Both the position numbers and the translations under genes were made by a program. DNA of 13,300 bases from a virus. Its lineage: Duplodnaviria; Heunggongvirae; Uroviricota; Caudoviricetes. The stretch is taken from positions 1-13,300 of IMG/VR virus record IMGVR_UViG_2681813205_000017; one strand, given 5' to 3'. Position 1 is the stretch's first letter. Every line of letters starts with the position of its first letter. Shown piece by piece: positions 1 through 13,300 of the stretch. The notes under the pieces were generated by a model. The model made no database searches. It was not told where the DNA came from and saw only the letters and a program-made list of their open reading frames with translations.

Positions 1-162
1 ATTACTGCTTCAGGTTGGTGTATTGCTTGCATCTTTCCCTTTTCATTCATAAAGATAGATCAAACAACAAAACCACCACCACCCCCCTGAAAAGGCTCAT
101 AAATAGCGAAAATCCGCGAGGTCTCCGCCCCGTAACAGGTCCATATGCCGGAAAGGACCCGC

Positions 163-184
163 AAAAAAGCCGGATTTCTCCGGC
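163..184 (-). terminator. Intrinsic terminator ending the capsid operon (GCCGGA-GAAA-UCCGGC stem-loop plus U6 on the - strand)
   Basis: 6-bp GC-rich stem with a GNRA tetraloop followed by six U on the - strand RNA, 7 bp downstream of the stop of the 191..604 gene. Confidence 0.7.
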
Positions 185-190
185 CTTGTC

Positions 191-604
191 TCAGATGGTT
201 TTCAGTATGCGATCGATGTCGCCGTCATCGCCCGGGTTTCTGCCATCGTATGCCATGCCAGCTGATACGGCTTGTGGGCTGTGCATGTCCATAAAGTTTT
301 CAAAGGCTGCGGTAAGCTCTGGTGCAACCTTCGGGCGTTCCTGCTCTATGGTCATGTTCAGGATGTTTTTAGCCGTATCAACATCAATACAAGGCACGTT
401 TGCCATTGCACGTAACAGCGGCTGATAGTCGTCAGATTCATGAAGCGCCATAATCGCATCAGCGCGCGGCTTGTCCTTCTCTTCCAGGCTGTTAAGTTGA
501 TATACGGCCTCGTAGGTTGATAAACCTCTGTCAGCCATTGCCCGCGCTTCGGCTTTAAATTTACTCGCCAGCGGTAGCGTCATGATACTTTCATTCGTTG
601 CCAT
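191..604 (-). CDS. Hypothetical protein, last gene of the capsid operon (137 aa)
   Basis: ATG at 604 preceded by a GGGGG Shine-Dalgarno. Starts 13 nt after the stop of the decoration-like gene and is followed by an intrinsic terminator. The + strand ORF 15..425 overlapping it lacks such context. Confidence 0.6.
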   Translation of the reverse strand: MATNESIMTLPLASKFKAEARAMADRGLSTYEAVYQLNSLEEKDKPRADAIMALHESDDYQPLLRAMANVPCIDVDTAKNILNMTIEQERPKVAPELTAAFENFMDMHSPQAVSAGMAYDGRNPGDDGDIDRILKTI

Positions 605-616
605 CGTTCCCCCTGC

Positions 617-952
617 TTATCGCGCCAGCGGCTGAACGGATACGCCAGAACCCGCAAAGGCGGCGCATTTTTTCGCGTCGGTGTCGGCGCTCTCAGGCCA
701 GTTAACGGCGGCAATATTGAATATCCCCGTCTTGTAGCACTGTGCTGATTTCTGCGTCGACGTGTCCACGGGGTACGAGGTCAGATAAACAGCCTTGCCA
801 GATTCCTGACCATCCCACGGCTTAAACTCGCCATTTTCCGCCAGCATCAGCGGGGTAAATTCCTGAATAACGCCAGCATCAGCAGCAAAATGTACCAGCG
901 TCGTGGATACCTGCTGACTACCTGCAAATAACTCAATGTATGGAGTGTCCAT
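617..952 (-). CDS. Head decoration protein, lambda gpD-like (111 aa)
   Basis: Translation shares recalled gpD motifs (TPLML, WDG, YK-G-F, WPE, KK-AFAG-VSV) and similar length. GGGGGG Shine-Dalgarno 5 nt upstream of the ATG. Immediately downstream of the capsid gene. Confidence 0.7.
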   Translation of the reverse strand: MDTPYIELFAGSQQVSTTLVHFAADAGVIQEFTPLMLAENGEFKPWDGQESGKAVYLTSYPVDTSTQKSAQCYKTGIFNIAAVNWPESADTDAKKCAAFAGSGVSVQPLAR

Positions 953-964
953 AGAATCCCCCCG

Positions 965-2020
965 TTAACCAATTTTGACGATAACAAATTTGCGAATATC
1001 TGCCGGTACCGGCTGCGGTGCGCTGTGCGTCTGCACGTACTCAATCGCCGGATCGCCGTCCTCAATCCAGTTTTTCGGGTAAAACATGTTTTGCGTTGCG
1101 CCCGTTCTGACCGCTTCCTGATCCATAATCGCACCATAGGCCACCAGCCCTTTATTGTTGGTGTTACCCAGGACCAGCAAATCAGGCTCAAGGAAATATT
1201 TTTCGGTGCCGTCGCTGTCAGTGTATTTGCCGGAATAGACGACAAGGGCAATATCGCCCAGATAGCCTTTAAAGCTCACCACTTCACCCAGGTTTTTACA
1301 GGCCAGTTCTGCGGCGGATTCTGAACCACGGGAAAGGTCGTACAGTTCGCGGAATTTTTTAAAGCTGCGTAACGTGCGCCATACTTCAGCGCCCATAATC
1401 ATGACGTTTGCGGGGCAATTGCCCTGATCAGCATAAAGCTCGATGTCATAGATTGGATCGTGTGTTTCTTTATCCAGCTCAGACCATTTTTTACCGTCAG
1501 CCTGTTCTATGATATTGCTTTCCGGGATCTTCCAGTCGATTTCATAGCGTTCTATGCCTTCGCCCTCAATGAGGTTTTTTCCGGTCGTTACCGCATTCAC
1601 CGCCAGCCATTCCACGCGTGCCTTAATGGCGTTTATCTGGCGGCGCATGTTGCCAGTAATCAGGCGCATACGGCGATAGGTAGGATCGTTAAGCTGTGCC
1701 GGATCTTCTCCAGCCATGCGCATGATGGTTTTTGTTGGATCGATTTCGTGTTTGGGTTTCATGTAGCCTGGTTTAATCGTGCTGGTTTCGTACCCTTTAT
1801 CGCGCTGGACCTGACTACCCACCATAGGCGAACAGAACGCTGACATCGTAACCTCTTCAATGTCCAGGGTGTCCAGAATGATGTTCTGGGTGTTGAAGGT
1901 CGCCACGTTCGGGAAAAACAGCGTGGTAAACAGCGGACTGAATTTAAATTCTGCAATATCCCCGCGATTCAGGTACGCGAAAAGCTGGTTAGTGTTAAGT
2001 GCCGTTGCTTTGCCTGCCAT
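965..2020 (-). CDS. Major capsid protein, lambda gpE family (351 aa)
   Basis: Translation aligns along its length with recalled lambda gpE (FKF-PLF, PGYMKPKHE, DPTYRRMR, LRSFK, RGSES, VVYSGKY, LVLGNT, YPKNW, GDPA, SAP). GGAGGTG Shine-Dalgarno; start overlaps the upstream stop (TAATG). Confidence 0.85.
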   Translation of the reverse strand: MAGKATALNTNQLFAYLNRGDIAEFKFSPLFTTLFFPNVATFNTQNIILDTLDIEEVTMSAFCSPMVGSQVQRDKGYETSTIKPGYMKPKHEIDPTKTIMRMAGEDPAQLNDPTYRRMRLITGNMRRQINAIKARVEWLAVNAVTTGKNLIEGEGIERYEIDWKIPESNIIEQADGKKWSELDKETHDPIYDIELYADQGNCPANVMIMGAEVWRTLRSFKKFRELYDLSRGSESAAELACKNLGEVVSFKGYLGDIALVVYSGKYTDSDGTEKYFLEPDLLVLGNTNNKGLVAYGAIMDQEAVRTGATQNMFYPKNWIEDGDPAIEYVQTHSAPQPVPADIRKFVIVKIG

Positions 2021-2226
2021 TATTCACCTCCATGCGTCTGATTCATGCCCAGCGCCGCGCGTAAATAGGCGCGGACCTGCCAGCCTGTTGACGGCTCAAC
2101 CATCGCCAGCGGATCAAGTCCTGCCGCAATGCCTGCTTTTACGTTCTGCTGGTGGCGTTCCTTGAGCGCCTTCACGATGTCGGGGCTTATGTACACCGAA
2201 ACACCGCCTTTTTTCTCTTCAGCCAT
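2020..2226 (-). CDS. Hypothetical small protein, first gene of the capsid operon (68 aa)
   Basis: ATG at 2226 with a purine-rich ribosome-binding site. Stop overlaps the capsid start codon (translational coupling). Lies ~55 nt downstream of a near-consensus sigma70 promoter. Confidence 0.6.
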   Translation of the reverse strand: MAEEKKGGVSVYISPDIVKALKERHQQNVKAGIAAGLDPLAMVEPSTGWQVRAYLRAALGMNQTHGGE

Positions 2227-2282
2227 AGTAAGAAATTCCTCTTCGACTTAAAAAATCATAACTGGATGTTTATCCAGTCCTG

Positions 2283-2310
2283 ATTATAATCAGAATTGCA
2301 TTTTATGCAA
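2283..2310 (-). promoter_or_regulatory. Sigma70-type promoter of the capsid operon (-35 TTGCAT, 16-bp spacer, -10 TATAAT on the - strand)
   Basis: On the - strand, TTGCAT (complement of 2305..2310) and TATAAT (complement of 2283..2288) with a 16-bp spacer. Both hexamers sit inside perfect palindromes (TTGCATTTTATGCAA and CTGATTATAATCAG). Confidence 0.55.
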
Positions 2311-2390
2311 TGATATTGAGTTATGTTGCAAATTATGAAATGATTATCCCGATCACGAACGCCAGTGCATCCAAAAACCTCATATGCAAA

Positions 2391-2429
2391 AGCCCGATAA
2401 GAACCCTCTGACCTTATCGGGCTTTTTTT
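2391..2429 (+). terminator. Strong stem-loop with T7 tract (AGCCCGATAAG ... CTTATCGGGCT TTTTTTT); + strand intrinsic terminator geometry, possibly bidirectional
   Basis: 11-bp stem followed by seven T on the + strand. On the - strand the same hairpin is followed by UUUUG. No + strand gene upstream, so it may act mainly as a second - strand terminator or insulator. Confidence 0.5.
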
Positions 2430-2435
2430 GGGCGC

Positions 2436-2457
2436 AAAAAAGCCGGATTGCTCCGGC
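2436..2457 (-). terminator. Intrinsic terminator after the 74-aa gene (GCCGGA-GCAA-UCCGGC plus U6)
   Basis: Same module as 163..184 and 2799..2821 but with a GCAA tetraloop; lies 20 bp downstream of the stop at 2478. Confidence 0.7.
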
Positions 2458-2477
2458 TATGTGTGCTGTGTGCTGGC

Positions 2478-2702
2478 TCAGTCTCTGATCTCTTTCAGAA
2501 ATTCTATCAATGCATCTATCTGTTCAGGATTTACCGCCAGCATTTCACCGGACAGAGCACATCTCACAAAACCATGCTGATCCTTTTCAATCAGTGCGCC
2601 CGTCTCCAGGAATGCGCGGTAATCATTGATGCTCATCGTCTCCATGTTGTCAGCATGGTATTTATCACGCTGTTTTAATATCTCATCAAATTTCATCGGC
2701 AT
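2478..2702 (-). CDS. Hypothetical protein (74 aa), monocistronic moron-like cassette
   Basis: ATG at 2702 preceded by AGAGGA. The gene is bracketed by intrinsic terminators on both sides (2799..2821 upstream, 2436..2457 downstream). Confidence 0.6.
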   Translation of the reverse strand: MPMKFDEILKQRDKYHADNMETMSINDYRAFLETGALIEKDQHGFVRCALSGEMLAVNPEQIDALIEFLKEIRD

Positions 2703-2798
2703 TGTTTTTTTCCTCTGTTGTGTCTGTTTGTTTCAGATAGTAACTATGCCTGACCGTGACGAAAACCCGGTAATGCGCCATACCGTTTCAACTGGTGC

Positions 2799-2821
2799 AA
2801 AAAAAGCCGGATTTCTCCGGC
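2799..2821 (-). terminator. Intrinsic terminator after the PerC-like gene (GCCGGA-GAAA-UCCGGC plus U7)
   Basis: GNRA-tetraloop hairpin plus U-tract on the - strand, 8 bp downstream of the stop at 2829. Confidence 0.7.
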
Positions 2822-2828
2822 TGTTTGA

Positions 2829-3104
2829 TTAGCTGTCCTGGTAATTGCGCCATATTTCATCACCAGCACCATCTATACCCATTTCGGCATAAGTGCGATC
2901 GACTGCCTTTTTCAGGTCTCCGAAATTATCCGGCGGCTCCGGTGCCCTCTGTGCCTTCCTTGAACATTCCAGCCGTCGCATCGTGATGTGATGCCGTTCC
3001 TTGTCTGTCTCCACCAGCTGCATGACTTCACCCCATCGCGCCGCCGCCCTCCGGTAAAAGCCTTTCGCCTCTAGTTCCTCCGCTATGCGGTCATGTACCA
3101 TCGT
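2829..3104 (-). CDS. PerC-family transcriptional regulator (91 aa)
   Basis: N-terminal AEELEAKGFYRRAAARWGEVM matches the recalled PerC/Pch signature (LE-G-WRRAA-RW). The likely start is the ATG at 3104 (GAGGGGG Shine-Dalgarno, 8 nt after the SSB stop) rather than the ORF-track start at 3221, which would overlap ssb by 110 nt. Confidence 0.65.
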   Translation of the reverse strand, partial: TMVHDRIAEELEAKGFYRRAAARWGEVMQLVETDKERHHITMRRLECSRKAQRAPEPPDNFGDLKKAVDRTYAEMGIDGAGDEIWRNYQDS

Positions 3105-3111
3105 CACCCCC

Positions 3112-3522
3112 TCAGAACGAAATATCATCACCGTAAGGGTCATCGCCTCCCGCTGGTGGCTGATTACCCTGTGTGCCTGTGGTTTTGCGTCTGTTCCCGC
3201 CAGGACGTGCCGCACGGGCACTGATTACGCTGTCTGCAATAACCTGATACCCCTGCCGTGTTTCCCCGTTCTGTCCGGTCCACTGGCTTACCTGCATCGT
3301 GCCGGATACGCTGGCAACATCGCCTTTTTGATGTTTAGCCAGGAAATCGGCCTGTTTGCCAAATGCGATAACCGATAACCATAACGTCGCCTGTCCGTCA
3401 TGTGCCTGGCTGCATGGCAACGATACCGCCATACGCGCCAGAGTCATCGGTGTGCCCTTGCTGGTCTGTTTTACCTGCGGGTCGTCCACCAGCCGCCCGT
3501 AAGCGGCTATCTGTGCCGTCAT
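3112..3522 (-). CDS. ssb: Single-stranded DNA-binding protein (136 aa)
   Basis: OB-fold core resembles E. coli SSB (W-x-x-V-x-x-FGK ... KG ... W), followed by a Gly/Gln/Pro-rich linker and an acidic C-terminal tail DDPYGDDISF (E. coli SSB ends DDDIPF). GGAGAGGTG Shine-Dalgarno; ATGA overlap with the upstream gene. Confidence 0.85.
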   Translation of the reverse strand: MTAQIAAYGRLVDDPQVKQTSKGTPMTLARMAVSLPCSQAHDGQATLWLSVIAFGKQADFLAKHQKGDVASVSGTMQVSQWTGQNGETRQGYQVIADSVISARAARPGGNRRKTTGTQGNQPPAGGDDPYGDDISF

Positions 3523-3770
3523 AATTCCACCTCTCCGGTTTTAACGTTGATGGTTGTTACCTGTTCCGCTTCGGCAATCTCCCGTTCTGTCAGCGTGGCA
3601 AAGTTTGCCGCCGCCGTGGTCATGAATGCGCTTATCAGGTCGGGATGTTCCTTCGCGTATCCTTCCCGCGTGTGGCGGTCTATCGTTCTGATTGCCACCT
3701 TTAAGGTGTGCTCAGTCATGTCTAACGCTTTATATTTTGGCTCTGTTCTGTCTCTGCGTTTTTGGGTCAT
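3519..3770 (-). CDS. Hypothetical protein (83 aa from the ATG at 3770; alternative start at 3800 gives 93 aa)
   Basis: ORF translationally coupled to ssb (ATGA overlap). The ATG at 3770 has a GAGAGG ribosome-binding site and avoids overlap with the iterons. Confidence 0.5.
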   Translation of the reverse strand: MTQKRRDRTEPKYKALDMTEHTLKVAIRTIDRHTREGYAKEHPDLISAFMTTAAANFATLTEREIAEAEQVTTINVKTGEVEL

Positions 3771-3782
3771 TTCTCGCAACCT

Positions 3783-3973
3783 CTCACTTTTTCGCCTCAC
3801 TTTTTCAAGCGTCTCACTTCGTCGCAGCTGGGATTTTCGGTTTTTCTATGTGTGTGTTTCATAAGTATTTTTTTACCCCTCACTTTTGAGGATGTATACA
3901 GGTCGAAAAGTGAGGGAGAGCAGGCTAATTTTGGCCCTCTTTCTATCCACCTCGCTTTTGCTCCTCACTTTTA
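3783..3973. repeat. Putative replication origin: six CTCACTT(TT) iterons flanking an AT-rich stretch
   Basis: CTCACTT copies at 3783, 3796, 3813 and 3879, an inverted copy at 3906..3915 (AAAAGTGAGG) and another at 3963, plus a degenerate copy near 3950. AT-rich segment 3836..3876. Lies directly 3' of the helicase gene. Confidence 0.55.
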
Positions 3974-5371
3974 TAGCGGCGCTACATCATCCCCATCGAT
4001 ACGAATAACCCCATCTTTTTCCAGCTTGTACAGCCAGCGCCGGAAGTTTTTCATTTCATACCCCAGCTTTTTCATGTCATCACGTAACAGCGGGATCGTG
4101 CACTTGTCGCCGTTCTGTGTGCGTGAACGGATGCACCCCCATAGCGCGGTATGGTTTTCCGTCTTGTTCCCTGCCTCCTCGATGCGCTCCAGTTCAACAG
4201 GAGGGCGCGGATCATCCACCACCACCAGCGACGTGATTAATTCACCGTCAGCGTCGGTAAAAAGCTCCACCACGCGTAAGTCATATGCGGCTTCTTTGAG
4301 TTCCTCCGCGTCCTTCATTTTGGTGCATGAGATAACCAGCGCTTCGCTTCCTGCGTCCTCCCTGCGTATCCGGTATTCAGCATCCAGCGAAGCACGAAAT
4401 GCACTGGAACCGCGCGCGCCTTTCGTCTCATCCTTGCCGGAATGGTGAACCACCAGCACCGTGGCCCCTGTGCGTCGTTTCAGTTCGTCACAACCACGGA
4501 TAAACGCCCCCATATCACGGGAATCATTTTCATCATTCCCACCAAAGCAACGCGCCAGCGTATCCAGAATAATCATGCGTACAGGTTTACCCGTTTCCCG
4601 CTCCACCTGACGGGCAGCGATAACCATTTCATCAACATCAAGCGGGGCAGCCGGAAAGATGGGGCGGTTTACCAGATACAGATTTTTCACCTGCTCATCG
4701 TGCACAACCTCCCAGGCTTTTACACGACGCGGAACACCTATACCGCCTTCACCAACCACATAGAGAACCGCACCATGTGCAACCCTGCGGCCTCCCCACT
4801 GGCGACCAGTGGCAACATGGCACGCCCACGATCCGGCAAGGAATGATTTATAGGACCCGCTAGCCCCGTATATGCTGCATAGCGATACCGCCGGAATAAT
4901 CCCCTTAACCACGTAATCCAGTTGCGTGTCGTATCCGGTAGATCCAACGCTCATCGGTAGCGTGGTTTTTCGCTGGTGGTTTTTTTCTTCCGCCGGCTCT
5001 TTCCCGCGCACCCGTTCCAGGTATTCGCGCCAGTTCTCCCGCATATGGCTGTGCATCCCTTCGGGGTAATAATTCGCATCAGTTACACCCGCCGCCGCCA
5101 GCTTGTGCGCAATGGCATTAATATTTGATGGCCTGATGTGGCCTGCCTTGTACAGCCGGACACAATAGCGCCCCTCGTCGATGATTCTCAGGTCTGCCAG
5201 TTCATCCAGTTGATCATCAGCCAGCACAACGGGAGGCACATTATCGCCAGCCAGTCGCCCGTCCTGTTCCTGCCACTGTTTCGCATGTGCCCAGGCATCA
5301 CTACCCGCAAAAATAATGACTTCGGTCATCTTGTCGTAAGGCTGTTTTTTTAAGTTCGGTGCGCTTTTCAT
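3971..5371 (-). CDS. Replication initiator / replicative helicase, RecA-fold ATPase (RepA / AAA_25-like), 466 aa
   Basis: Walker A-like GASGSYKS, Walker B-like MIILDTLARCF, and VLVVHHSGKD typical of RepA/DnaB-like helicases of satellites and plasmids. ATGA overlap with the upstream gene; iterons immediately downstream. Confidence 0.75.
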   Translation of the reverse strand: MKSAPNLKKQPYDKMTEVIIFAGSDAWAHAKQWQEQDGRLAGDNVPPVVLADDQLDELADLRIIDEGRYCVRLYKAGHIRPSNINAIAHKLAAAGVTDANYYPEGMHSHMRENWREYLERVRGKEPAEEKNHQRKTTLPMSVGSTGYDTQLDYVVKGIIPAVSLCSIYGASGSYKSFLAGSWACHVATGRQWGGRRVAHGAVLYVVGEGGIGVPRRVKAWEVVHDEQVKNLYLVNRPIFPAAPLDVDEMVIAARQVERETGKPVRMIILDTLARCFGGNDENDSRDMGAFIRGCDELKRRTGATVLVVHHSGKDETKGARGSSAFRASLDAEYRIRREDAGSEALVISCTKMKDAEELKEAAYDLRVVELFTDADGELITSLVVVDDPRPPVELERIEEAGNKTENHTALWGCIRSRTQNGDKCTIPLLRDDMKKLGYEMKNFRRWLYKLEKDGVIRIDGDDVAPL

Positions 5372-5667
5372 TTCTTGCCCCTGAATCCGTTAATCATGGT
5401 TTTCAGCTTCTGGATGTTTGCCCGTGCCCTGGCGTTGCTGGTGGGCACGTTATGCGGCGCGGTCTGTACCAGAGAAAAATCACGCCGGAACTGATAAACA
5501 GGCATCACGCAATCATATTCGTAACCTTCACGGCGGTAGGTTACGCGCCGTTCTTCCACGCCCTTAATCATTACCGTGCCGCCGTACTGGTCGCGGTAAA
5601 TATCACCGCGCGTAAATTTAGGGTGAGTGTTGCCACTGGCAGTTAAGCCAGAATATTTAAGTTTCAT
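5368..5667 (-). CDS. Hypothetical protein (99 aa), translationally coupled to the helicase gene
   Basis: ATG at 5667; stop overlaps the helicase start (ATGA). Basic, Tyr/Arg-rich; no recognisable motif. Confidence 0.55.
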   Translation of the reverse strand: MKLKYSGLTASGNTHPKFTRGDIYRDQYGGTVMIKGVEERRVTYRREGYEYDCVMPVYQFRRDFSLVQTAPHNVPTSNARARANIQKLKTMINGFRGKK

Positions 5668-5672
5668 TATTT

Positions 5673-5906
5673 TTATTCTCCGGTGTGCTGTTCTTTATAT
5701 CTGTCGTGCAATAGATCTATTTCTTGCAGTTCCATTATTACAGGATCAAGAAGCGTTATTAATGCCGTGGCAATTCTTGATTTTTGTTTGTCGCGTTCAT
5801 TGTCGCCAAGTGTTTCAAGCCATATGCGCAATATTTCCAGCATGTTTTCACTGTGAGAAAGTGCAAGAAATGCGCGGTCTATTGTTTGGTGGTAAATATC
5901 ACGCAT
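5673..5906 (-). CDS. Hypothetical protein (77 aa)
   Basis: ATG at 5906 overlaps the stop of the upstream gene (ATGCGTGA). Part of the same coupled gene chain. Confidence 0.55.
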   Translation of the reverse strand: MRDIYHQTIDRAFLALSHSENMLEILRIWLETLGDNERDKQKSRIATALITLLDPVIMELQEIDLLHDRYKEQHTGE

Positions 5907-6357
5907 GGCTTACATCCTCAGGAAATTTTCTTCTATAACGCGCCTCTGCCACATATTCCGCATAATCGGCGGCGATATTCAGTACATCAAGCCCCGTTGA
6001 TTTATATTCTCTCGTGGAAAGTAAGAAAAAAGCCGCTCTAATAAGTTCTGGCATTGACGAAAGCGCATCAGCCGCATCATCAGGAACGCCGGAAAATTCC
6101 TGTTTCAGGGAATTAAAACGATCATCACGCATAACCCCCCCCCCATTTTCACAATCAGCAACAAGAATATTTTTAGCGTCATTCAGCGACCGCGTTGCGG
6201 TGTATCGGATACATTCCAGGGCGAATAGTGTGTATTCTTCCCTTTCTTCCCTTTCTTCCTTTTGTGCAAGCTCTGCTGTGCATTCAATATCAATAAGCGC
6301 GTGCATCAGCGTAGTGAGTGCGGCGGCGGCTGCGTCCGGTGTGGTTTTATTGCACAT
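5899..6357 (-). CDS. Hypothetical acidic protein (153 aa from the ATG at 6357) containing an in-frame G10 tract
   Basis: ATG at 6357 has a GGAGGGG Shine-Dalgarno 3 nt upstream. The ORF-track start at 6411 has no ribosome-binding site and would overlap the upstream gene by 65 nt. Contains an EEREEREE repeat and the Gly-Gly-Gly encoded by the C10 run at 6135..6144. Confidence 0.55.
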   Translation of the reverse strand: MCNKTTPDAAAAALTTLMHALIDIECTAELAQKEEREEREEYTLFALECIRYTATRSLNDAKNILVADCENGGGVMRDDRFNSLKQEFSGVPDDAADALSSMPELIRAAFFLLSTREYKSTGLDVLNIAADYAEYVAEARYRRKFPEDVSHA

Positions 6358-6577
6358 GTACCCCTCCGCATTTTTTTTCGTTAGAAATAAGCGTTCTTCT
6401 TTCCTGTTCATCGATCAGGAATACGCAGACCTCACCGCTAAGGCGTTTAAGTAAGCCGATGATTGCCCCTGATTCGCTGTCGGTCATCATGCCTGGGTAA
6501 TCCTCTGCCAGTGCGCAAATAACTTCGATTTGGTGGGCGCGTTCTACTGCCTGTTGTAGTGTGATTTCCTGGCTCAT
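6347..6577 (-). CDS. Hypothetical protein (76 aa)
   Basis: ATG at 6577 with a GGGGG ribosome-binding site; ATGA overlap with the candidate upstream ORF. Contains an A8 tract on the coding strand. Confidence 0.55.
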   Translation of the reverse strand: MSQEITLQQAVERAHQIEVICALAEDYPGMMTDSESGAIIGLLKRLSGEVCVFLIDEQERRTLISNEKKCGGVHVQ

Positions 6578-6774
6578 AAGCCTACCCCCTGACGAATACG
6601 GGCAGCGAATACCATCACGCAGCCAGCCGGGGATTGCAGGCGTGCTTCCTGTTCGCTGGTGGCCTCAATGGTAATCACGCGCGGTTGTGCAGTGCTCAGG
6701 GCGATAAAACGCCAAATGTATTTATTCAGGTTGTGCGAGTCCCGCCCTTGCGGGTGTGTGGTATGATTTCTCAT
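6574..6774 (-). CDS. Candidate small ORF (66 aa), putative first gene of the early operon
   Basis: Not listed separately in the ORF track; it is the C-terminal end of the spurious 381-aa ORF. ATG at 6774 with a GAGG ribosome-binding site 6 nt upstream; stop overlaps the next start (ATGA); ~100 nt downstream of the predicted - strand promoter. Confidence 0.4.
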   Translation of the reverse strand: MRNHTTHPQGRDSHNLNKYIWRFIALSTAQPRVITIEATSEQEARLQSPAGCVMVFAARIRQGVGL

Positions 6775-6872
6775 AGCTACCTCGATACTCTCGTTATCGT
6801 TGGTGGTTAGAAGCCCCGTTACTGCTCCTACAGTGCGGGGTTTCGTCGTTTCTGCACCTTGCATTAACAAGG

Positions 6873-6950
6873 TGTAAGTAACTTTATTTATAGGTGGCTT
6901 ACATGTCAATGCTTTTATGTAAGACTTTTTATGTGTATATTGTCTTACAC
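6873..6950. promoter_or_regulatory. Divergent switch region: four TGTAAG / CTTACA operator half-sites overlapping a - strand TTGACA-N17-TAAAGT promoter
   Basis: Half-sites at 6873 (TGTAAG), 6898 (CTTACA), 6919 (TGTAAG) and 6945 (CTTACA), alternating in orientation. On the - strand a perfect -35 TTGACA (complement of 6904..6909) and a -10 TAAAGT (complement of 6881..6886) with a 17-bp spacer. Confidence 0.5.
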
Positions 6951-6970
6951 TTTCATTGAGAGGATTACAG

Positions 6971-7276
6971 ATGGCTACAGGTTCAAAAAACGCAAAATCA
7001 CAATCACTGACAGCTCGGATCCCGCATGATGTTATTGAAGGCATGGAATCCGTAAAACTGGACGGTGAAAGCAACGCCGGATTCATAGTAACCGCCATGC
7101 GCGGTGAAATCGCCCGCCGCCAGGCAGAAGGAAGCGGAGAAAACCTCCTGATTTCTTCGCTCAATGCACTGGCGCAGGTGGAAAAACTCGGAATCAAAGC
7201 CGCCGAGGAGATCGGGCAGCTCGTCACTGTCGCACGTGAAGAACTCCAGCGCCGCAAGACTAAAGAACCAGAGTAA
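6971..7276 (+). CDS. Putative transcriptional regulator, candidate repressor of the early operon (101 aa)
   Basis: ATG at 6971 with a GAGAGGA Shine-Dalgarno. Divergent from the - strand operon and immediately downstream of the operator cluster. Function is inferred from position only. Confidence 0.55.
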   Translation: MATGSKNAKSQSLTARIPHDVIEGMESVKLDGESNAGFIVTAMRGEIARRQAEGSGENLLISSLNALAQVEKLGIKAAEEIGQLVTVAREELQRRKTKEPE

Positions 7277-7318
7277 TCACCATCAGCGCCGTGGTGTAAG
7301 GTATTACGGCGCATTGCT

Positions 7319-7507
7319 ATGCAGGACAACACAATGACCGATAAAGAATTGACCAAAACATTATCACCGGCACGGAAAAGACGGCGCAGAAAGATAGAGC
7401 ATGAATCAGAAAGATTCGCGCCATGTGCTTTTGCCCTTGAGCAATTCCTTAAAGAGTACAGGGAAAAGCGCTCATTGCAGGTATGGCAACGAACTGAACC
7501 AGACTGA
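7319..7507 (+). CDS. Small basic protein (62 aa; alternative start at 7334)
   Basis: ORF following the regulator on the same strand, with a Lys/Arg-rich stretch (ARKRRRRK). Followed by an intrinsic terminator at 7603..7630. Confidence 0.4.
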   Translation: MQDNTMTDKELTKTLSPARKRRRRKIEHESERFAPCAFALEQFLKEYREKRSLQVWQRTEPD

Positions 7508-7602
7508 TAGCATTGCCCACCAGCCTGATAGCGACTATCATTGCCGTTCTTATGTTTGGGATCACACACACAAACGGCGCAGCGGGTTATCTGTTCAGAA
7601 AG

Positions 7603-7630
7603 GCGGCTCCATTTCGGGGCCGCTTTTTTT
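7603..7630 (+). terminator. Intrinsic terminator for the + strand regulator genes
   Basis: GCGGCUCC ... GGGGCCGC stem (one G-U wobble) with a 5-nt loop, followed by seven T. Confidence 0.6.
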
Positions 7631-7776
7631 ATGTCTGAAAAACCCCAATTTTGTTGTTTTTCAGTTTCACCAGGGCGAACGAATCCCCGCCCACGTTCTG
7701 GCGTATATTCAATCTTCATGGTTATAGCTCTGTGTTCAGATGATTGATGTGTGGCGGCTGCGTGCCGCCAGCGTGA

Positions 7777-7965
7777 TTAATGAACTGCCTTGCAGCTATC
7801 CTTCCAGGCCAGAACCTCGGATAAAGACCAGCCAACGGAACGACCGCCAAGTTTACGACGTGATGGGAATTGTCCGGCCTTTTCCAGGCGGTAGCGACAC
7901 GTACGGCTAAGGCCGGTTAGTTTTTCGCATTCTTTTTCACGTATAAACCGATCAGTGCTTAACAC
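7777..7965 (-). CDS. alpA: AlpA-family phage regulator / excisionase-like protein (62 aa from GTG at 7965)
   Basis: CEKLTGLSRTCRYRLEKAGQFP ... GGRSVGWSLSEVLAWK matches the AlpA helix-turn-helix signature. The ORF track starts at a TTG at 8046, but a GTG at 7965 has an AGGGGGG Shine-Dalgarno and gives the typical AlpA length. Confidence 0.75.
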   Translation of the reverse strand: MLSTDRFIREKECEKLTGLSRTCRYRLEKAGQFPSRRKLGGRSVGWSLSEVLAWKDSCKAVH

Positions 7966-8238
7966 TATTGCCCCCCTTTCGTTTCTTAAAGAGTCATCAG
8001 GTGTCTTATTGTGTCGTATTGTTCCCGCTAGAGTGATGAATGGCAAATATTGAGGATGTATGATTTACAGAAAATGAAACAGTAAGAATAAAATCTTTTA
8101 AATTCATGTTAATACAAAGGCATAAAATATTGTTTCATGCCTTTTTTCTCACGCGTTAAAGCGTTATTCGCTAATGTATAAAAAAACAGTCACACAAATA
8201 AAATCAGTCACTTATAAACCTGTGTACTTTTTCGCCTC

Positions 8239-8288
8239 TTGTTCGTGGTTGTTCCACGTTGTTTCACATTGTTCGCCGTTGTATCTGT
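8239..8288. repeat. Five tandem 10-bp units each beginning TTGT (helically phased) between int and alpA
   Basis: TTGTTCGTGG TTGTTCCACG TTGTTTCACA TTGTTCGCCG TTGTATCTGT, an exact 10-bp period. Confidence 0.6.
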
Positions 8289-8330
8289 GTGCTTATCCAG
8301 TATGCGCATACTGAAAAAACACGAAAAAAA

Positions 8331-9548
8331 TTATTTTCTTCTGGCTGCTGGTAGTGCGGTTACGTTTTCATGTGTTCCCGCCAGTATCCCTAACCGCTCC
8401 ATCCACATATCCAGCGCATTGCGTTTAGCATCCAGATAACGGGAATGATTATAAACTCGCTGCATTCCTGGCATCTGGTGGCCTGTAAGCTGCTCCACGA
8501 CATGCGGATCAACGCCTAAATCGTTCAGCATGGTTGTAAAGGTGCGCCGGATGTCATGCAGTGACCAGTGAGGATGATTAAGCCTCCTGTGCGCTAATCT
8601 TCCATACTGCGATACGCTGGCCTCCTGTTTCACTTCCCCCAGCAATAAGCCCGTGTGCCTGTTCTGCTCCACCAGCTGCGTGACGAACGGCAGTATTGCT
8701 TCCGGTATGGGCCGGAATATTGCCACCTTCGTTTTGCTGTGTTCTTTCGGCACGGTCCAGAGCATTTCGGTAAAATCCCACTCGCTGATCTCCGATAACC
8801 TCAGTTCTACCGTCCGGCATCCGAACACAATCAGGAGGCGGATTAACGCGATGTAGTAGGGGGAGAATATTTTTTTGTCCAGTGCCTGCAATAATTCGCC
8901 CAGTTCTTTGGTGCTTAAGACACGCTCGCTTATATCCGGTTTTTTCCCAACGTCCGCCACACTCATATCATCAAGAACGTTGCTGATTGCATAGCGCCGC
9001 CTCCGGCAGAACTTAAGCGCCTGTTTGCACGTCTGTAGCAAGAATCCGGCAGTAACAGGCGTTCGCTTTGCCACCTGGTCAAAACAGGCCAGCCAGTGCC
9101 GTAGCTCGCATTTATCCAGCGGCATAGCACCAATGTGCTGTATTACGTGATTATTAAGTCGCCTTTTCAGGGCGATATAATCCACGCGGTTTTCCTTTAC
9201 GTAATACTCAAGCCAGTAGGTGAGCGCATCGCCAACCGTTACGGGCTTTAACGCTTCCTGTACGGTGTAATTCATCTCATGACGTGGATTTTTCCCCTCA
9301 GCCAGCCATGTGCGACACTGTGCGGCTTTTTCCCTGGCTGCTTTCAGGCTCAGATCAGGATAACTTCCCAGCTTAATGCGTTCGGGTCGTGTCTCCCTTC
9401 CCGTTCCGGCCCTGTATGTGAAATACCAGGTCAATTTCCCTGATGTTAAATATTTCACGCTCAGGTTTCCGCCATCACTATAAAACGTGTTTTTCTCCGC
9501 TGGCTTACCATGAAGTTTCCTTAGCAAGGTATCGCTCAGTTTGTTCAT
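8331..9548 (-). CDS. int: Tyrosine integrase, P4-like family
   Basis: N-terminal arm-binding-type motif (KPAEKNTFYSDGGNLSVKYL), C-terminal catalytic region with HDIRRT and VYNHSRY (R, H-x-x-R, Y). Start is probably the ATG at 9548 (MNKLSD...); the ORF track uses a GTG at 9560. It is the outermost island gene next to the junction. Confidence 0.85.
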   Translation of the reverse strand: MNKLSDTLLRKLHGKPAEKNTFYSDGGNLSVKYLTSGKLTWYFTYRAGTGRETRPERIKLGSYPDLSLKAAREKAAQCRTWLAEGKNPRHEMNYTVQEALKPVTVGDALTYWLEYYVKENRVDYIALKRRLNNHVIQHIGAMPLDKCELRHWLACFDQVAKRTPVTAGFLLQTCKQALKFCRRRRYAISNVLDDMSVADVGKKPDISERVLSTKELGELLQALDKKIFSPYYIALIRLLIVFGCRTVELRLSEISEWDFTEMLWTVPKEHSKTKVAIFRPIPEAILPFVTQLVEQNRHTGLLLGEVKQEASVSQYGRLAHRRLNHPHWSLHDIRRTFTTMLNDLGVDPHVVEQLTGHQMPGMQRVYNHSRYLDAKRNALDMWMERLGILAGTHENVTALPAARRK

Positions 9549-9584
9549 TGCTCTGCTCACGTTTTACCCCCTCTTTACGAAAAA

Positions 9585-9650
9585 GTGACTACACCAGTGA
9601 CTACACCGATCGTTGCACAAAGGGCTACAACGTGAAACAAGCTGGAACAA
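9585..9650. promoter_or_regulatory. int upstream region with a 12-bp tandem repeat (GTGACTACACC x2) and four 10-bp phased units ending ACAA; candidate arm-type or regulator binding sites
   Basis: GTGACTACACCA GTGACTACACCG at 9585..9608. CGTTGCACAA AGGGCTACAA CGTGAAACAA GCTGGAACAA at 9611..9650, which is the reverse complement motif of the array at 8239..8288. Confidence 0.45.
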
Positions 9651-9757
9651 GGAAAATCACAAATCTGTTGATAATCAAAAACATAATGCACAGCCTGAAA
9701 CATTATGAAACAGCAAAAAACACTAAATGATAAAATGCTGTTATTCTTAACCCGCTG

Positions 9758-10642
9758 GTGCAACACATGGTCCGCTGGCGAGTGCCGCGTGTACTGGCGG
9801 TGTCGATTTTGATGACCATCATCGTGATGGCGATGGTGTTGCTATTAGCTTATCTGGGTTCCGCGCTCAACGAGTTGACGCGGACGTTACCGCAATATCG
9901 CAACTCTATTATGACGCCGCTGCAAGCTCTTGAGCCGTTGTTGCAACGCGTAGGGATTGACGTCTCAGTTGACCAGCTGGCGCATTACATTGATCCGAAC
10001 GCGGCGATGACGTTGCTCACCAACTTATTGACGCAGTTATCTAATGCCATGTCATCAATATTTTTATTGCTGCTGACGGTGCTGTTTATGCTGCTCGAAG
10101 TGCCACAATTGCCCGGAAAATTTCAGCAAATGATGGCGCGTCCGGTTGAAGGGATGGCGGCGATTCAACGTGCAATTGACAGTGTTTCTCATTATCTGGT
10201 GCTGAAAACAGCCATCAGCATCATCACCGGCCTGGTCGCCTGGGCGATGCTCGCCGCACTCGATGTTCGCTTCGCTTTTGTCTGGGGATTGCTGGCCTTT
10301 GCGCTTAATTACATCCCTAATATTGGTTCAGTTCTCGCGGCAATCCCCCCTATCGCTCAGGTACTGGTGTTTAATGGCTTCTACGAAGCGTTGCTGGTGC
10401 TGGCGGGATATCTGCTGATTAATCTGGTCTTCGGCAATATTCTGGAGCCGCGCATCATGGGACGTGGGCTGGGGCTTTCCACATTGGTGGTATTTTTGTC
10501 GTTGATTTTTTGGGGATGGTTGTTAGGACCGGTGGGTATGCTGCTTTCCGTGCCGTTAACAATTATTGTCAAAATTGCGCTTGAACAAACAGCGGGAGGT
10601 CAAAGCATCGCCGTTCTGTTAAGCGATCTCAATAAAGAGTGA
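9758..10642 (+). CDS. tqsA: AI-2 exporter TqsA (YdgG), 5'-truncated by the island insertion (294 codons retained)
   Basis: Translation matches recalled E. coli TqsA from its internal [15 protein letters not shown] segment to the C-terminal SDLNKE. An in-frame TAA at 9731..9733 lies directly upstream and there is no native N-terminus or ribosome-binding site. The ORF-track start is an internal GTG. Confidence 0.8.
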
Positions 10643-10662
10643 CGGCCTCCGCAGAGGCCGTC
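10641..10662. terminator. Shared stem-loop between convergent tqsA and pntB (GACGGCCTC-cgca-GAGGCCGTC)
   Basis: 9-bp perfect GC-rich inverted repeat lying exactly between the two stop codons. Confidence 0.55.
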
Positions 10663-10666
10663 AGGG

Positions 10667-12058
<1,392 letters not shown>

Positions 12059-12065
12059 TTACCCC

Positions 12066-13300
<1,235 letters not shown>

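Follow-up and report, generated by a model that had tools for sequence, protein, structure and literature searches.

Bases 1 to ~9740 of the 13,300-nucleotide (nt) stretch of DNA analyzed here (the window; positions 1 to 13,300 of IMG/VR record IMGVR_UViG_2681813205_000017) form an island inserted in the Escherichia coli gene tqsA, beside pntAB. Its gene content assigns it to the phage-inducible chromosomal islands (PICIs) of Gram-negative hosts, a group of phage satellites, as an EcCICFT073-like member resident in E. coli. The island genes all lie on the minus strand, and toward its left end a single short hairpin followed by a run of U residues recurs three times, each time behind the last gene of a unit. 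The features that frame these three copies are as follows, in plus-strand coordinates:

161-184, minus strand: hairpin copy 1; stem GCCGGA (184-179)/UCCGGC (174-169), loop GAAA (178-175), U6 (168-163), then GC (162-161)
191-2226, minus strand: capsid operon, recognized from Pfam Phage_cap_E and HDPD, PHROG matches and annotation
191-604, minus strand: 137-amino-acid open reading frame (ORF; g137), final gene of the capsid operon, matching the C-terminal part of PHROG 53 'head maturation protease' (E = 6.7e-9)
2388-2424, either strand: second, unrelated terminator-like hairpin with a 10-bp stem, a 9-nt loop, A7 on one side and U4 on the other
2434-2458, minus strand: hairpin copy 2; 7-bp stem AGCCGGA/UCCGGCU (2458-2441), loop GCAA (2451-2448), U-run to 2436, then GC
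2478-2702, minus strand: 74-amino-acid gene (g74), PHROG 1957, between copies 3 and 2
2797-2822, minus strand: hairpin copy 3; 7-bp stem (2822-2805), loop GAAA (2815-2812), U7 (2805-2799), then GC
2829-3101, minus strand: perC, from Pfam PerC and the RefSeq annotation of a 99.5% identical island
3112-3522, minus strand: ssb, from Pfam SSB and the same RefSeq annotation

A search with the pattern GCAAAAAAGCCGGATTNCTCCGGC, allowing up to three mismatches, returns three matches in the window (161-184, 2434-2457, and 2798-2821), against a chance expectation of 0.00 estimated from 200 dinucleotide-preserving shuffles. The minus-strand reading of the copies is (A/G)GCCGGA-GNAA-UCCGGC(U), with a tail of U6, U6 or U7 that leads into GC. 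A preliminary description of this DNA had reported a ~22-bp module at 163..184, 2436..2457 and 2799..2821, coordinates that correctly delimit the A-run plus the hairpin; the string it quoted is in fact 24 nt long, starts 2 nt earlier at the GC (161/2434), and can be aligned to copy 3, where A7 stands in place of A6, only by allowing a 1-nt indel. Its further observations that each copy lies just downstream of a minus-strand gene and that two loops are GAAA and the third GCAA are accurate: the distances from the stop codons, all of minus-strand genes, are 6 nt (copy 1, g137), 20 nt (copy 2, g74), and 7 nt (copy 3, perC), and the loops in copy order are GAAA, GCAA, and GAAA. When 110 nt around each copy are aligned, the similarity spans only ~24-26 nt within unrelated flanks, the bases common to the copies outside the hairpin being ACA/AUA ahead of the stem and GC after the U-run. 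Copy 1 closes the capsid operon, 2 nt upstream of cosQ; copy 2 closes the one-gene g74 unit; and copy 3 closes the leftward replication, or early, operon (…repA-ssb-perC), of which ssb and perC are the final genes. Copies 2 and 3 thereby bracket g74, at a copy-to-copy distance of 364 nt.

All the sequence attributes of a Rho-independent terminator are present in each copy, namely, a G+C stem, a tetraloop, a U-run directly 3′, and a co-oriented site after the last gene of a unit, and from this full canonical set we infer that the three copies act as such terminators. The hairpins alone, with stems of 6-7 bp that include five G-C pairs and a 4-nt loop, have predicted free energies of -10.4 to -12.0 kcal/mol, and in contexts of 46-51 nt each copy folds with a minimum free energy of -15.9 to -18.9 kcal/mol, at z-scores of -2.5 to -4.5 relative to shuffles. 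Together with their U-runs, the three copies give the only positive scores in the window in the classical terminator discriminant (d'Aubenton Carafa, 1990), here combined with modern energy parameters, such that the absolute values are rough. A generic terminator scan places copies 2 and 3 among its top minus-strand matches and misses copy 1, because the stem of the latter can extend into the U-run (AAGG…CUUU) and leaves too few U residues for the rule; this omission is an artefact of the rule and no difference in kind. As far as sequence can tell, the earlier designation of the copies as terminators is thus borne out by stem, loop, U-tail, position relative to the stop codon, and fold energies below those of shuffles. 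A scan of the whole window against Rfam matched no family. The second hairpin, at 2388-2424, begins 10 nt after copy 2 and always accompanies the capsid-E module, whose upstream edge it forms. It could act in both directions and, because it stands in tandem with copy 2, the capsid operon would be insulated by two stops.

Conservation of the hairpin was counted among loci retrieved through the upstream proteins, and hence independently of the module itself. After g137 it is intact in 120/120 relatives, where cosQ-cosN always follows; after g74, in 53/54; and after perC, in 86/96, with a single mutation in eight others and absence from two. The variants are single uncompensated changes, comprising GCCGGAGAAAUACGGC, …CCGGA, GCCUGAG…, a 1-nt insertion, a U-run cut to 2, and a GAAAA pentaloop after ssb. 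Among distinct haplotypes, diversity is 0.25-0.5 in the flanks, 0.59 at the N of the loop in the perC context, and ~0 in the stem, a value that is partly circular because hairpins were located with up to one mismatch allowed, the unbiased measure being the protein-retrieved counts of intact and variant copies. The loop N (A, C, U, G) is the only freely varying position of the module in relatives, in which GUAA and GGAA loops also occur and the U-run is 4-9 long. The proposal that the loops are GNRA tetraloops therefore holds for the window and agrees with the restriction of free variation to N, with the pentaloop found directly after ssb in several islands as the departure from it. This conservation fits a GNRA hairpin under constraint and is no independent proof of the structure.

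The hairpin recurs at the joints between modules throughout the satellite family. The preliminary description had suggested a search of related islands for the module beside different cargo genes, its absence there pointing to chance; the hairpin is found across related islands, following at least five different genes and preceding at least seven different blocks. A pattern scan of IMG/VR gave 120 loci which, with four E. coli loci and the window, hold 160 copies, and the genes upstream of these are perC (31), g137 (29), ssb (20), g74 (10), g83 (7), and others, the primase region among the sites. The downstream blocks comprise the g74 unit, the capsid-E leader, the HK97 capsid/portal/terminase leader of capsid-forming PICIs (cf-PICIs) of the EcCIEDL933 type, cos1 variants, cos2, protease-capsid fusion modules, and another E-type capsid. 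Clustering of the 250-nt flanks is reticulate: the perC flank meets five downstream flanks, the g74 flank two, and the g137 flank three cos variants, while one cos-type downstream flank pairs with five upstream flanks. In pairs of copies with one side in common, identity on the other side is at background within 10-20 nt of the module. Homology breakpoints fall at the same places. Of the 1,036 E. coli records with homology to window positions 1-3300, 60 were sampled at even spacing; they gave 33 single-piece partial matches, 27 of which end at 162, 2428, 2437 or 2800/2801, although these 27 ends represent a few event classes rather than 27 independent events. The breakpoints at 2428/2437 belong to copy 2 and those at 2800/2801 to copy 3, and homology to the capsid module ends at 2428.

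The clearest case of module turnover concerns g74. In all 38 loci retrieved through its protein, g74 has the arrangement perC-[hairpin]-g74-[hairpin], followed by either the capsid-E operon or the HK97 operon, and none of the 38 places it in another context. Relatives that lack g74 have perC, one hairpin, and then the next block, with a junction that is clean to the nucleotide. Three comparisons of g74-less with g74-bearing loci illustrate how little else separates them: identity over the 400 nt upstream and in the downstream flank is 100% and 98% for L233 versus L227, 98.5% and 98.0% for L231 versus L240, and 98.8% and 96.8% for L272 versus L220. In the g74-less alleles, the surviving single copy has the U-run length and the downstream flank of copy 2. 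The precise absence of g74 with one copy left behind carries the signature of repeat-mediated deletion or insertion. Only three kinds of inter-copy segment occur, of ~354-364 nt (g74), ~1.9-2.3 kb (capsid operon), and ~2.44 kb (cos2 block plus capsid operon), so the cassette repertoire is very small, and g74 stands alone as a small cassette with a copy on either side. The earlier idea that the copies serve as recombination points for cassette exchange thus finds support for g74 alone, where two copies alternate with one, and is not supported as a general hot spot, given the three segment kinds and arm crossovers that lie in a flanking gene.

The evidence on those crossovers comes from IMG/VR loci aligned over the ~1.06-kb stretch that runs from ssb through to copy 2, on which the packaging-arm types prove polyphyletic. 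A capsid-E locus (L399) and an HK97 locus (L422) have replication-arm blocks that are 99.4% identical, and two further pairs with different arms reach 99.2% (L408 vs. L427) and 98.6% (L431 vs. L430). Polyphyletic arms on near-identical blocks imply recurrent and recent exchange between PICIs with lambda-type capsid and cos and the HK97 cf-PICIs. In pairs of one E-type and one HK97-type locus, the differences are concentrated in the final 33 nt before copy 2; the spacer (19 vs. 10 nt) and the U-run (6 vs. 5) are perfectly associated with the downstream arm across 8 + 12 distinct haplotypes, and one recombinant (L431) maps between -33 and -26. This clustering of differences ahead of copy 2 and the linkage of spacer and U-run place the crossovers upstream, in homologous genes (g74, left arm). 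Judged from these alignments, the hairpin is the last stretch of shared sequence in the arm swaps and not a hot spot. The hairpin as the crossover site of arm swaps was accordingly rejected for the sampled E/HK97 pairs, in which hairpin, spacer, and U-run length are linked to the downstream arm. The searched parts of the cf-PICI preprint treat only the first uptake of the packaging module from phages, which they describe as ancient (bioRxiv 10.1101/2022.09.08.507074).

More widely, 1,222 of 5,426 complete E. coli genomes contain the module, with 2,841 occurrences altogether and a median of 2 and a maximum of 10 in any one genome, so that it belongs to the accessory genome and serves no core gene as terminator. 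All of the E. coli contexts inspected are PICI-type islands, including two weak single-copy matches picked as a test. Among the isolated coliphages of a 50,697-record collection, none has the exact hairpin and only looser look-alikes occur. An origin of the hairpin in helper phages was considered and is not supported, in view of this absence from coliphages and of a lambdoid cos-flank homology that ends in the U-run.

Taken together, these observations are probably best explained by three copies of one family-specific intrinsic terminator, related by descent and reused as an end-piece, with g74 gained or lost through recombination between copies. The copies would stop leftward transcription at the ends of three consecutive island units, namely, the replication operon at copy 3, the g74 unit at copy 2, and the capsid operon at copy 1. 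They would descend from one sequence that was carried along or duplicated as units were joined, rather than having evolved separately, and the hairpin would constitute a conserved end-piece where alternative blocks abut in this satellite family. The g74 unit would come and go by recombination between its two bracketing copies, and the larger arm exchanges would proceed by ordinary homologous recombination in shared genes upstream of the hairpin.

Several observations weigh against this explanation. At least 120 unrelated bacterial taxa, spread over several phyla, have single copies of the exact hairpin with an A5/U5 run, and AT-rich (34-42% G+C) phage contigs in IMG/VR that are unrelated to PICIs carry an identical hairpin (L010, L015, L019, L024, L029, L041, L055, L064, L094, and others). 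Sequence identity alone is therefore no proof of common descent. Many mosaic joints of the island lack the hairpin (window positions 3772, 5006, 6188, 6286, 6584, 6875, 7237, and 7637), and a scan of the window found no promoter-like site between copy 3 and g74. Finally, the stems show no covariation among relatives, being invariant with rare and uncompensated variants, so selection on the structure is not separately demonstrated. What distinguishes these islands is the multi-copy, family-restricted use of the hairpin; the sequence itself can arise independently. Many of the AT-rich contigs derive from one gut metagenome, and the hairpin again joins variable combinations of upstream and downstream flanks there.

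Copy 1 requires separate attention, for it abuts a putative packaging signal:

85-167, minus strand: lambda-like cos segment, in which the resemblance to lambdoid phages sets in within the U-run of copy 1
160-154, minus strand: cosQ-like GGGTCCT
130-119, minus strand: cosN-like GGGCGGAGACCT, with one mismatch to lambda GGGCGGCGACCT; most relatives have the lambda sequence exactly

Some islands contain two units of hairpin plus cos (L002, 8380-8625; L246, L257, and L274), in the order ssb-[hairpin]-cos2 … capsid operon-[hairpin]-cos1. These two-cos islands match the two cos sites reported for EcCICFT073, and the same terminator precedes each cos.

The most serious competitor holds that the hairpin is a preferred recombination linker and that most module exchange, including swaps between lambda-capsid/cos PICIs and cf-PICIs, takes place by crossover inside the 24-26 bp module. 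It would account for a hairpin that is the sole shared sequence at many alternative junctions, for breakpoints that cluster at the copies, for the two-copies versus one-copy pattern of the g74 indel, and for arm types that are polyphyletic on left blocks as similar as those of L399 and L422. The fine structure of the exchanges nonetheless makes it unlikely: the members of arm pairs differ only within the 33 nt that precede copy 2, spacer and U-run length are fully tied to the downstream arm in the 8 + 12 haplotypes, with the L431 crossover at -33 to -26, the inter-copy segments are of three kinds only, and many island joints have no hairpin. Far less probable, and already disfavoured, is the notion that the copies are independent terminators that converged within the small sequence space of short G+C stems and GNRA loops. 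The single copies of the exact hairpin that turn up in 120 or more unrelated taxa, and its presence in AT-rich phages of no relation, are what convergence would produce; zero matches are nevertheless expected by chance in the window, the hairpin is missing from the E. coli core genome and is multi-copy in these islands only, the copies have flanking bases in common (ACA/AUA before the stem, GC after the U-run), and the variants at orthologous junctions are single mutations of the same sequence.

There is similarly little chance that copy 1, with the hairpin-cos units of relatives, functions in the cos packaging signal, instead of or besides termination. Such a role would agree with a hairpin that lies 2 nt from cosQ in every relative whichever gene is upstream (g137, ssb, perC, or g83), that stands before each cos in the two-cos islands, and whose U-run and GC overlap the lambda-like cos flank TTTTTGCGGGTCC. 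Copies 2 and 3, however, adjoin no cos, the HK97-type cf-PICIs also have the hairpin, and lambdoid phages have no G+C hairpin at that position. Least credible of all, and largely refuted by the anatomy of the module, is a recognition site for site-specific or hairpin-dependent recombination of the integron attC, REP/RAYT or IS200/IS605 kind, even though a palindromic element directly repeated around a small gene, with a single copy after loss, does resemble cassette excision. An integron attC is an imperfect palindrome of 57-141 bp with R″/L″/L′/R′ boxes and extrahelical bases, located beside an intI/attI platform. The module here is only ~24 nt, a 16-nt perfect stem-loop whose 6-7 bp palindrome lacks extrahelical bases and R/L boxes, and the only recombinase is the island's own 409-amino-acid tyrosine integrase at the far end, ~5.5 kb away by the att repeats. 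Repetitive extragenic palindromes (REP) and the mosaic elements built on them (BIME) are present in many copies across the core chromosome of a species, unlike a module that is absent from the core genome and occupies a median of two places, in islands, in 1,222/5,426 E. coli genomes. The cassette repertoire, moreover, amounts to a single gene.

An extension of the reused-terminator explanation can be entertained tentatively. The hairpin might be a minimal, terminator-only counterpart of the promoter-early stem-loop (PeSL) elements of T4-like phages, a portable end-piece of 24-26 bp and a shared landing pad where small genes, second cos sites, and packaging arms were inserted, lost or first joined. 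These events might be catalyzed by recombinases of the helper phage that use short homology while satellite and helper are induced together. If true, this would explain why one replication arm is common to lambda-capsid/cos PICIs and cf-PICIs, and why two-cos PICIs have the hairpin before each cos. We consider it possible but rather doubtful.

The remaining features of the window are consistent with its assignment to the PICIs:

617-952, minus strand: gpD-like decoration protein
965-2020, minus strand: lambda-E-like major capsid protein
2020-2226, minus strand: 68-amino-acid ORF of the capsid operon
3788-3972: three 17-nt repeats (TTTTnCnCCTCACTTTT) at a spacing of 83-85 nt, adjoining the repA-type gene
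3971-5371, minus strand: RepA/AAA_25 helicase gene, followed by the three spaced 17-nt repeats
8331-9560, minus strand: tyrosine integrase, 409 amino acids, at the far end of the island next to the att repeats
9758-10642: host gene tqsA, 5′ end missing

Insertion of the island accounts for the missing 5′ end of tqsA. In strain E686 (L004), the tqsA site is taken by a capsid-forming PICI, and the annotation shows two tqsA fragments. Other island genes include an alpA-type helix-turn-helix (HTH) gene, an icd-like gene, DUF4222, and an 83-amino-acid gene (g83). The 99.5% identical island (L001, strain E2865) extends further, with a TerS-like gene, a 93-amino-acid gene, and a right end beyond the window. 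The hallmarks of a Gram-negative PICI are all found, namely, int with an alpA-type regulator, unidirectional genes, a rep gene followed by an iteron-type origin, a size of ~10-15 kb, packaging genes or cos, and att. The 17-nt repeats TTTTnCnCCTCACTTTT are probably the iterons of the island's replication origin. Because of its match to the C-terminal part of PHROG 53, the 137-amino-acid ORF is classed as Nu3/scaffold-like; the island would thus encode capsid, decoration, and scaffold-like proteins, in a gene order unlike that of lambda.

Two further sets of elements deserve mention. TTGTTnnnnG repeats with a 10-bp periodicity occur four times between int and the alpA-like gene (8239-8283, plus strand) and twice at the att end (9626-9650, minus strand), that is, 6 matches against 0.41 expected, and are also present in the HK97 packaging-operon leader of capsid-forming PICIs (L003, 8950-8985); they are candidate sites of integrase-arm or AlpA binding. 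The capsid-operon leader has a TATAAT box (~2296-2291, minus strand) within the palindrome CTGATTATAATCAG, then a hairpin ACUGGAU-aaac-AUCCAGU plus UAUGAUUUUUU (2279-2246, minus strand) ahead of the start codon at 2226, with an additional palindrome TTGCATTTTATGCAA upstream of these elements, an assembly that may be an attenuator or operator arrangement.

As a signal, the hairpin is a routine terminator whose main use lies in delimiting the transcription units of EcCICFT073-like PICIs during annotation: the early operon would end after perC, and the capsid operon would be insulated by tandem stops and end just before cos. Of modest interest to the satellite field, one hairpin marks where a conserved replication arm gives way to any of at least seven downstream blocks. 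Left arms that are 99.4% identical with either type of arm attached suggest recent exchange of packaging arms between two PICI classes. A modest evolutionary footnote of the PeSL kind is added by one small gene, g74, whose gain or loss is clean and bounded by repeats. Where PICIs are engineered as delivery vehicles, the flanks of the hairpin may offer natural and apparently tolerated insertion points.

How these copies relate to known systems depends on the level considered. Taken singly, they do not differ structurally from the canonical intrinsic terminators of E. coli and its phages, with the same short G+C-rich stem, stable tetraloop, immediate U-run, and position after the stop codon; the difference lies in one sequence being reused three times in 2.7 kb and throughout a satellite family. 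At the level of modules, precedents come from lambdoid phages. Juhala and colleagues and Hendrix and colleagues reportedly described morons and module boundaries in these phages in 2000, and Susskind and Botstein are said to have formulated a modular theory with conserved linkers. Normally a moron comes with a promoter, and the terminators on its two sides are not duplicates of one another. The island resembles this arrangement in having a small extra gene with its own terminator between two units and mosaic joints at the ends of transcription units, and differs from it in that the flanking terminators are copies of each other.

Among the PICIs themselves, the closest comparison is EcCICFT073, for which the consulted sections report a capsid gene (c1499), a decoration gene (c1500), cos sites, perC alleles, and unidirectional transcription (PMC6092414; PMC6739421). 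The island parallels EcCICFT073 and EcCIEDL933 in int, the alpA-like HTH, icd-like and DUF4222 genes, the rep gene with origin-like repeats, ssb, perC, the capsid E/D homologues, a lambda-like cos, and a TerS-like gene. The searched parts of the PICI papers, including PMC6092414, mention neither terminators nor a shared junction, and the word "terminator" is absent from those of PMC6739421 and the cf-PICI preprint (bioRxiv 10.1101/2022.09.08.507074).

The PeSL elements of T4-like phages offer a further parallel. The sections consulted describe a composite motif of ~100 bp that combines a strong sigma-70 early promoter with a stem-loop, at ~50 copies per genome, and a pattern of two copies versus one that was used to argue for PeSL-PeSL recombination (PMC2839356; PMC4122927). 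The conserved stretch here is confined to ~24-26 nt, and no promoter-like site was found on the minus strand by copies 1 or 3, such that the composite motif is not reproduced. Unlike PeSL, the island has a ~24-nt terminator only, with no promoter detected, 1-3 copies per island, and one known cassette, and its large exchanges do not cross over in the hairpin. Like PeSL, repeated intergenic stem-loop terminators flank small genes of unassigned role at the boundaries of indels and replacements, and a gene, here g74, lies between two copies in one genome where a relative has a single copy. The family-wide reuse of the terminator at joints, the repeat-bounded g74, and the recent swapping of arms, which do not appear in the searched parts of the PICI papers, would thus constitute a new instance of a known phenomenon.

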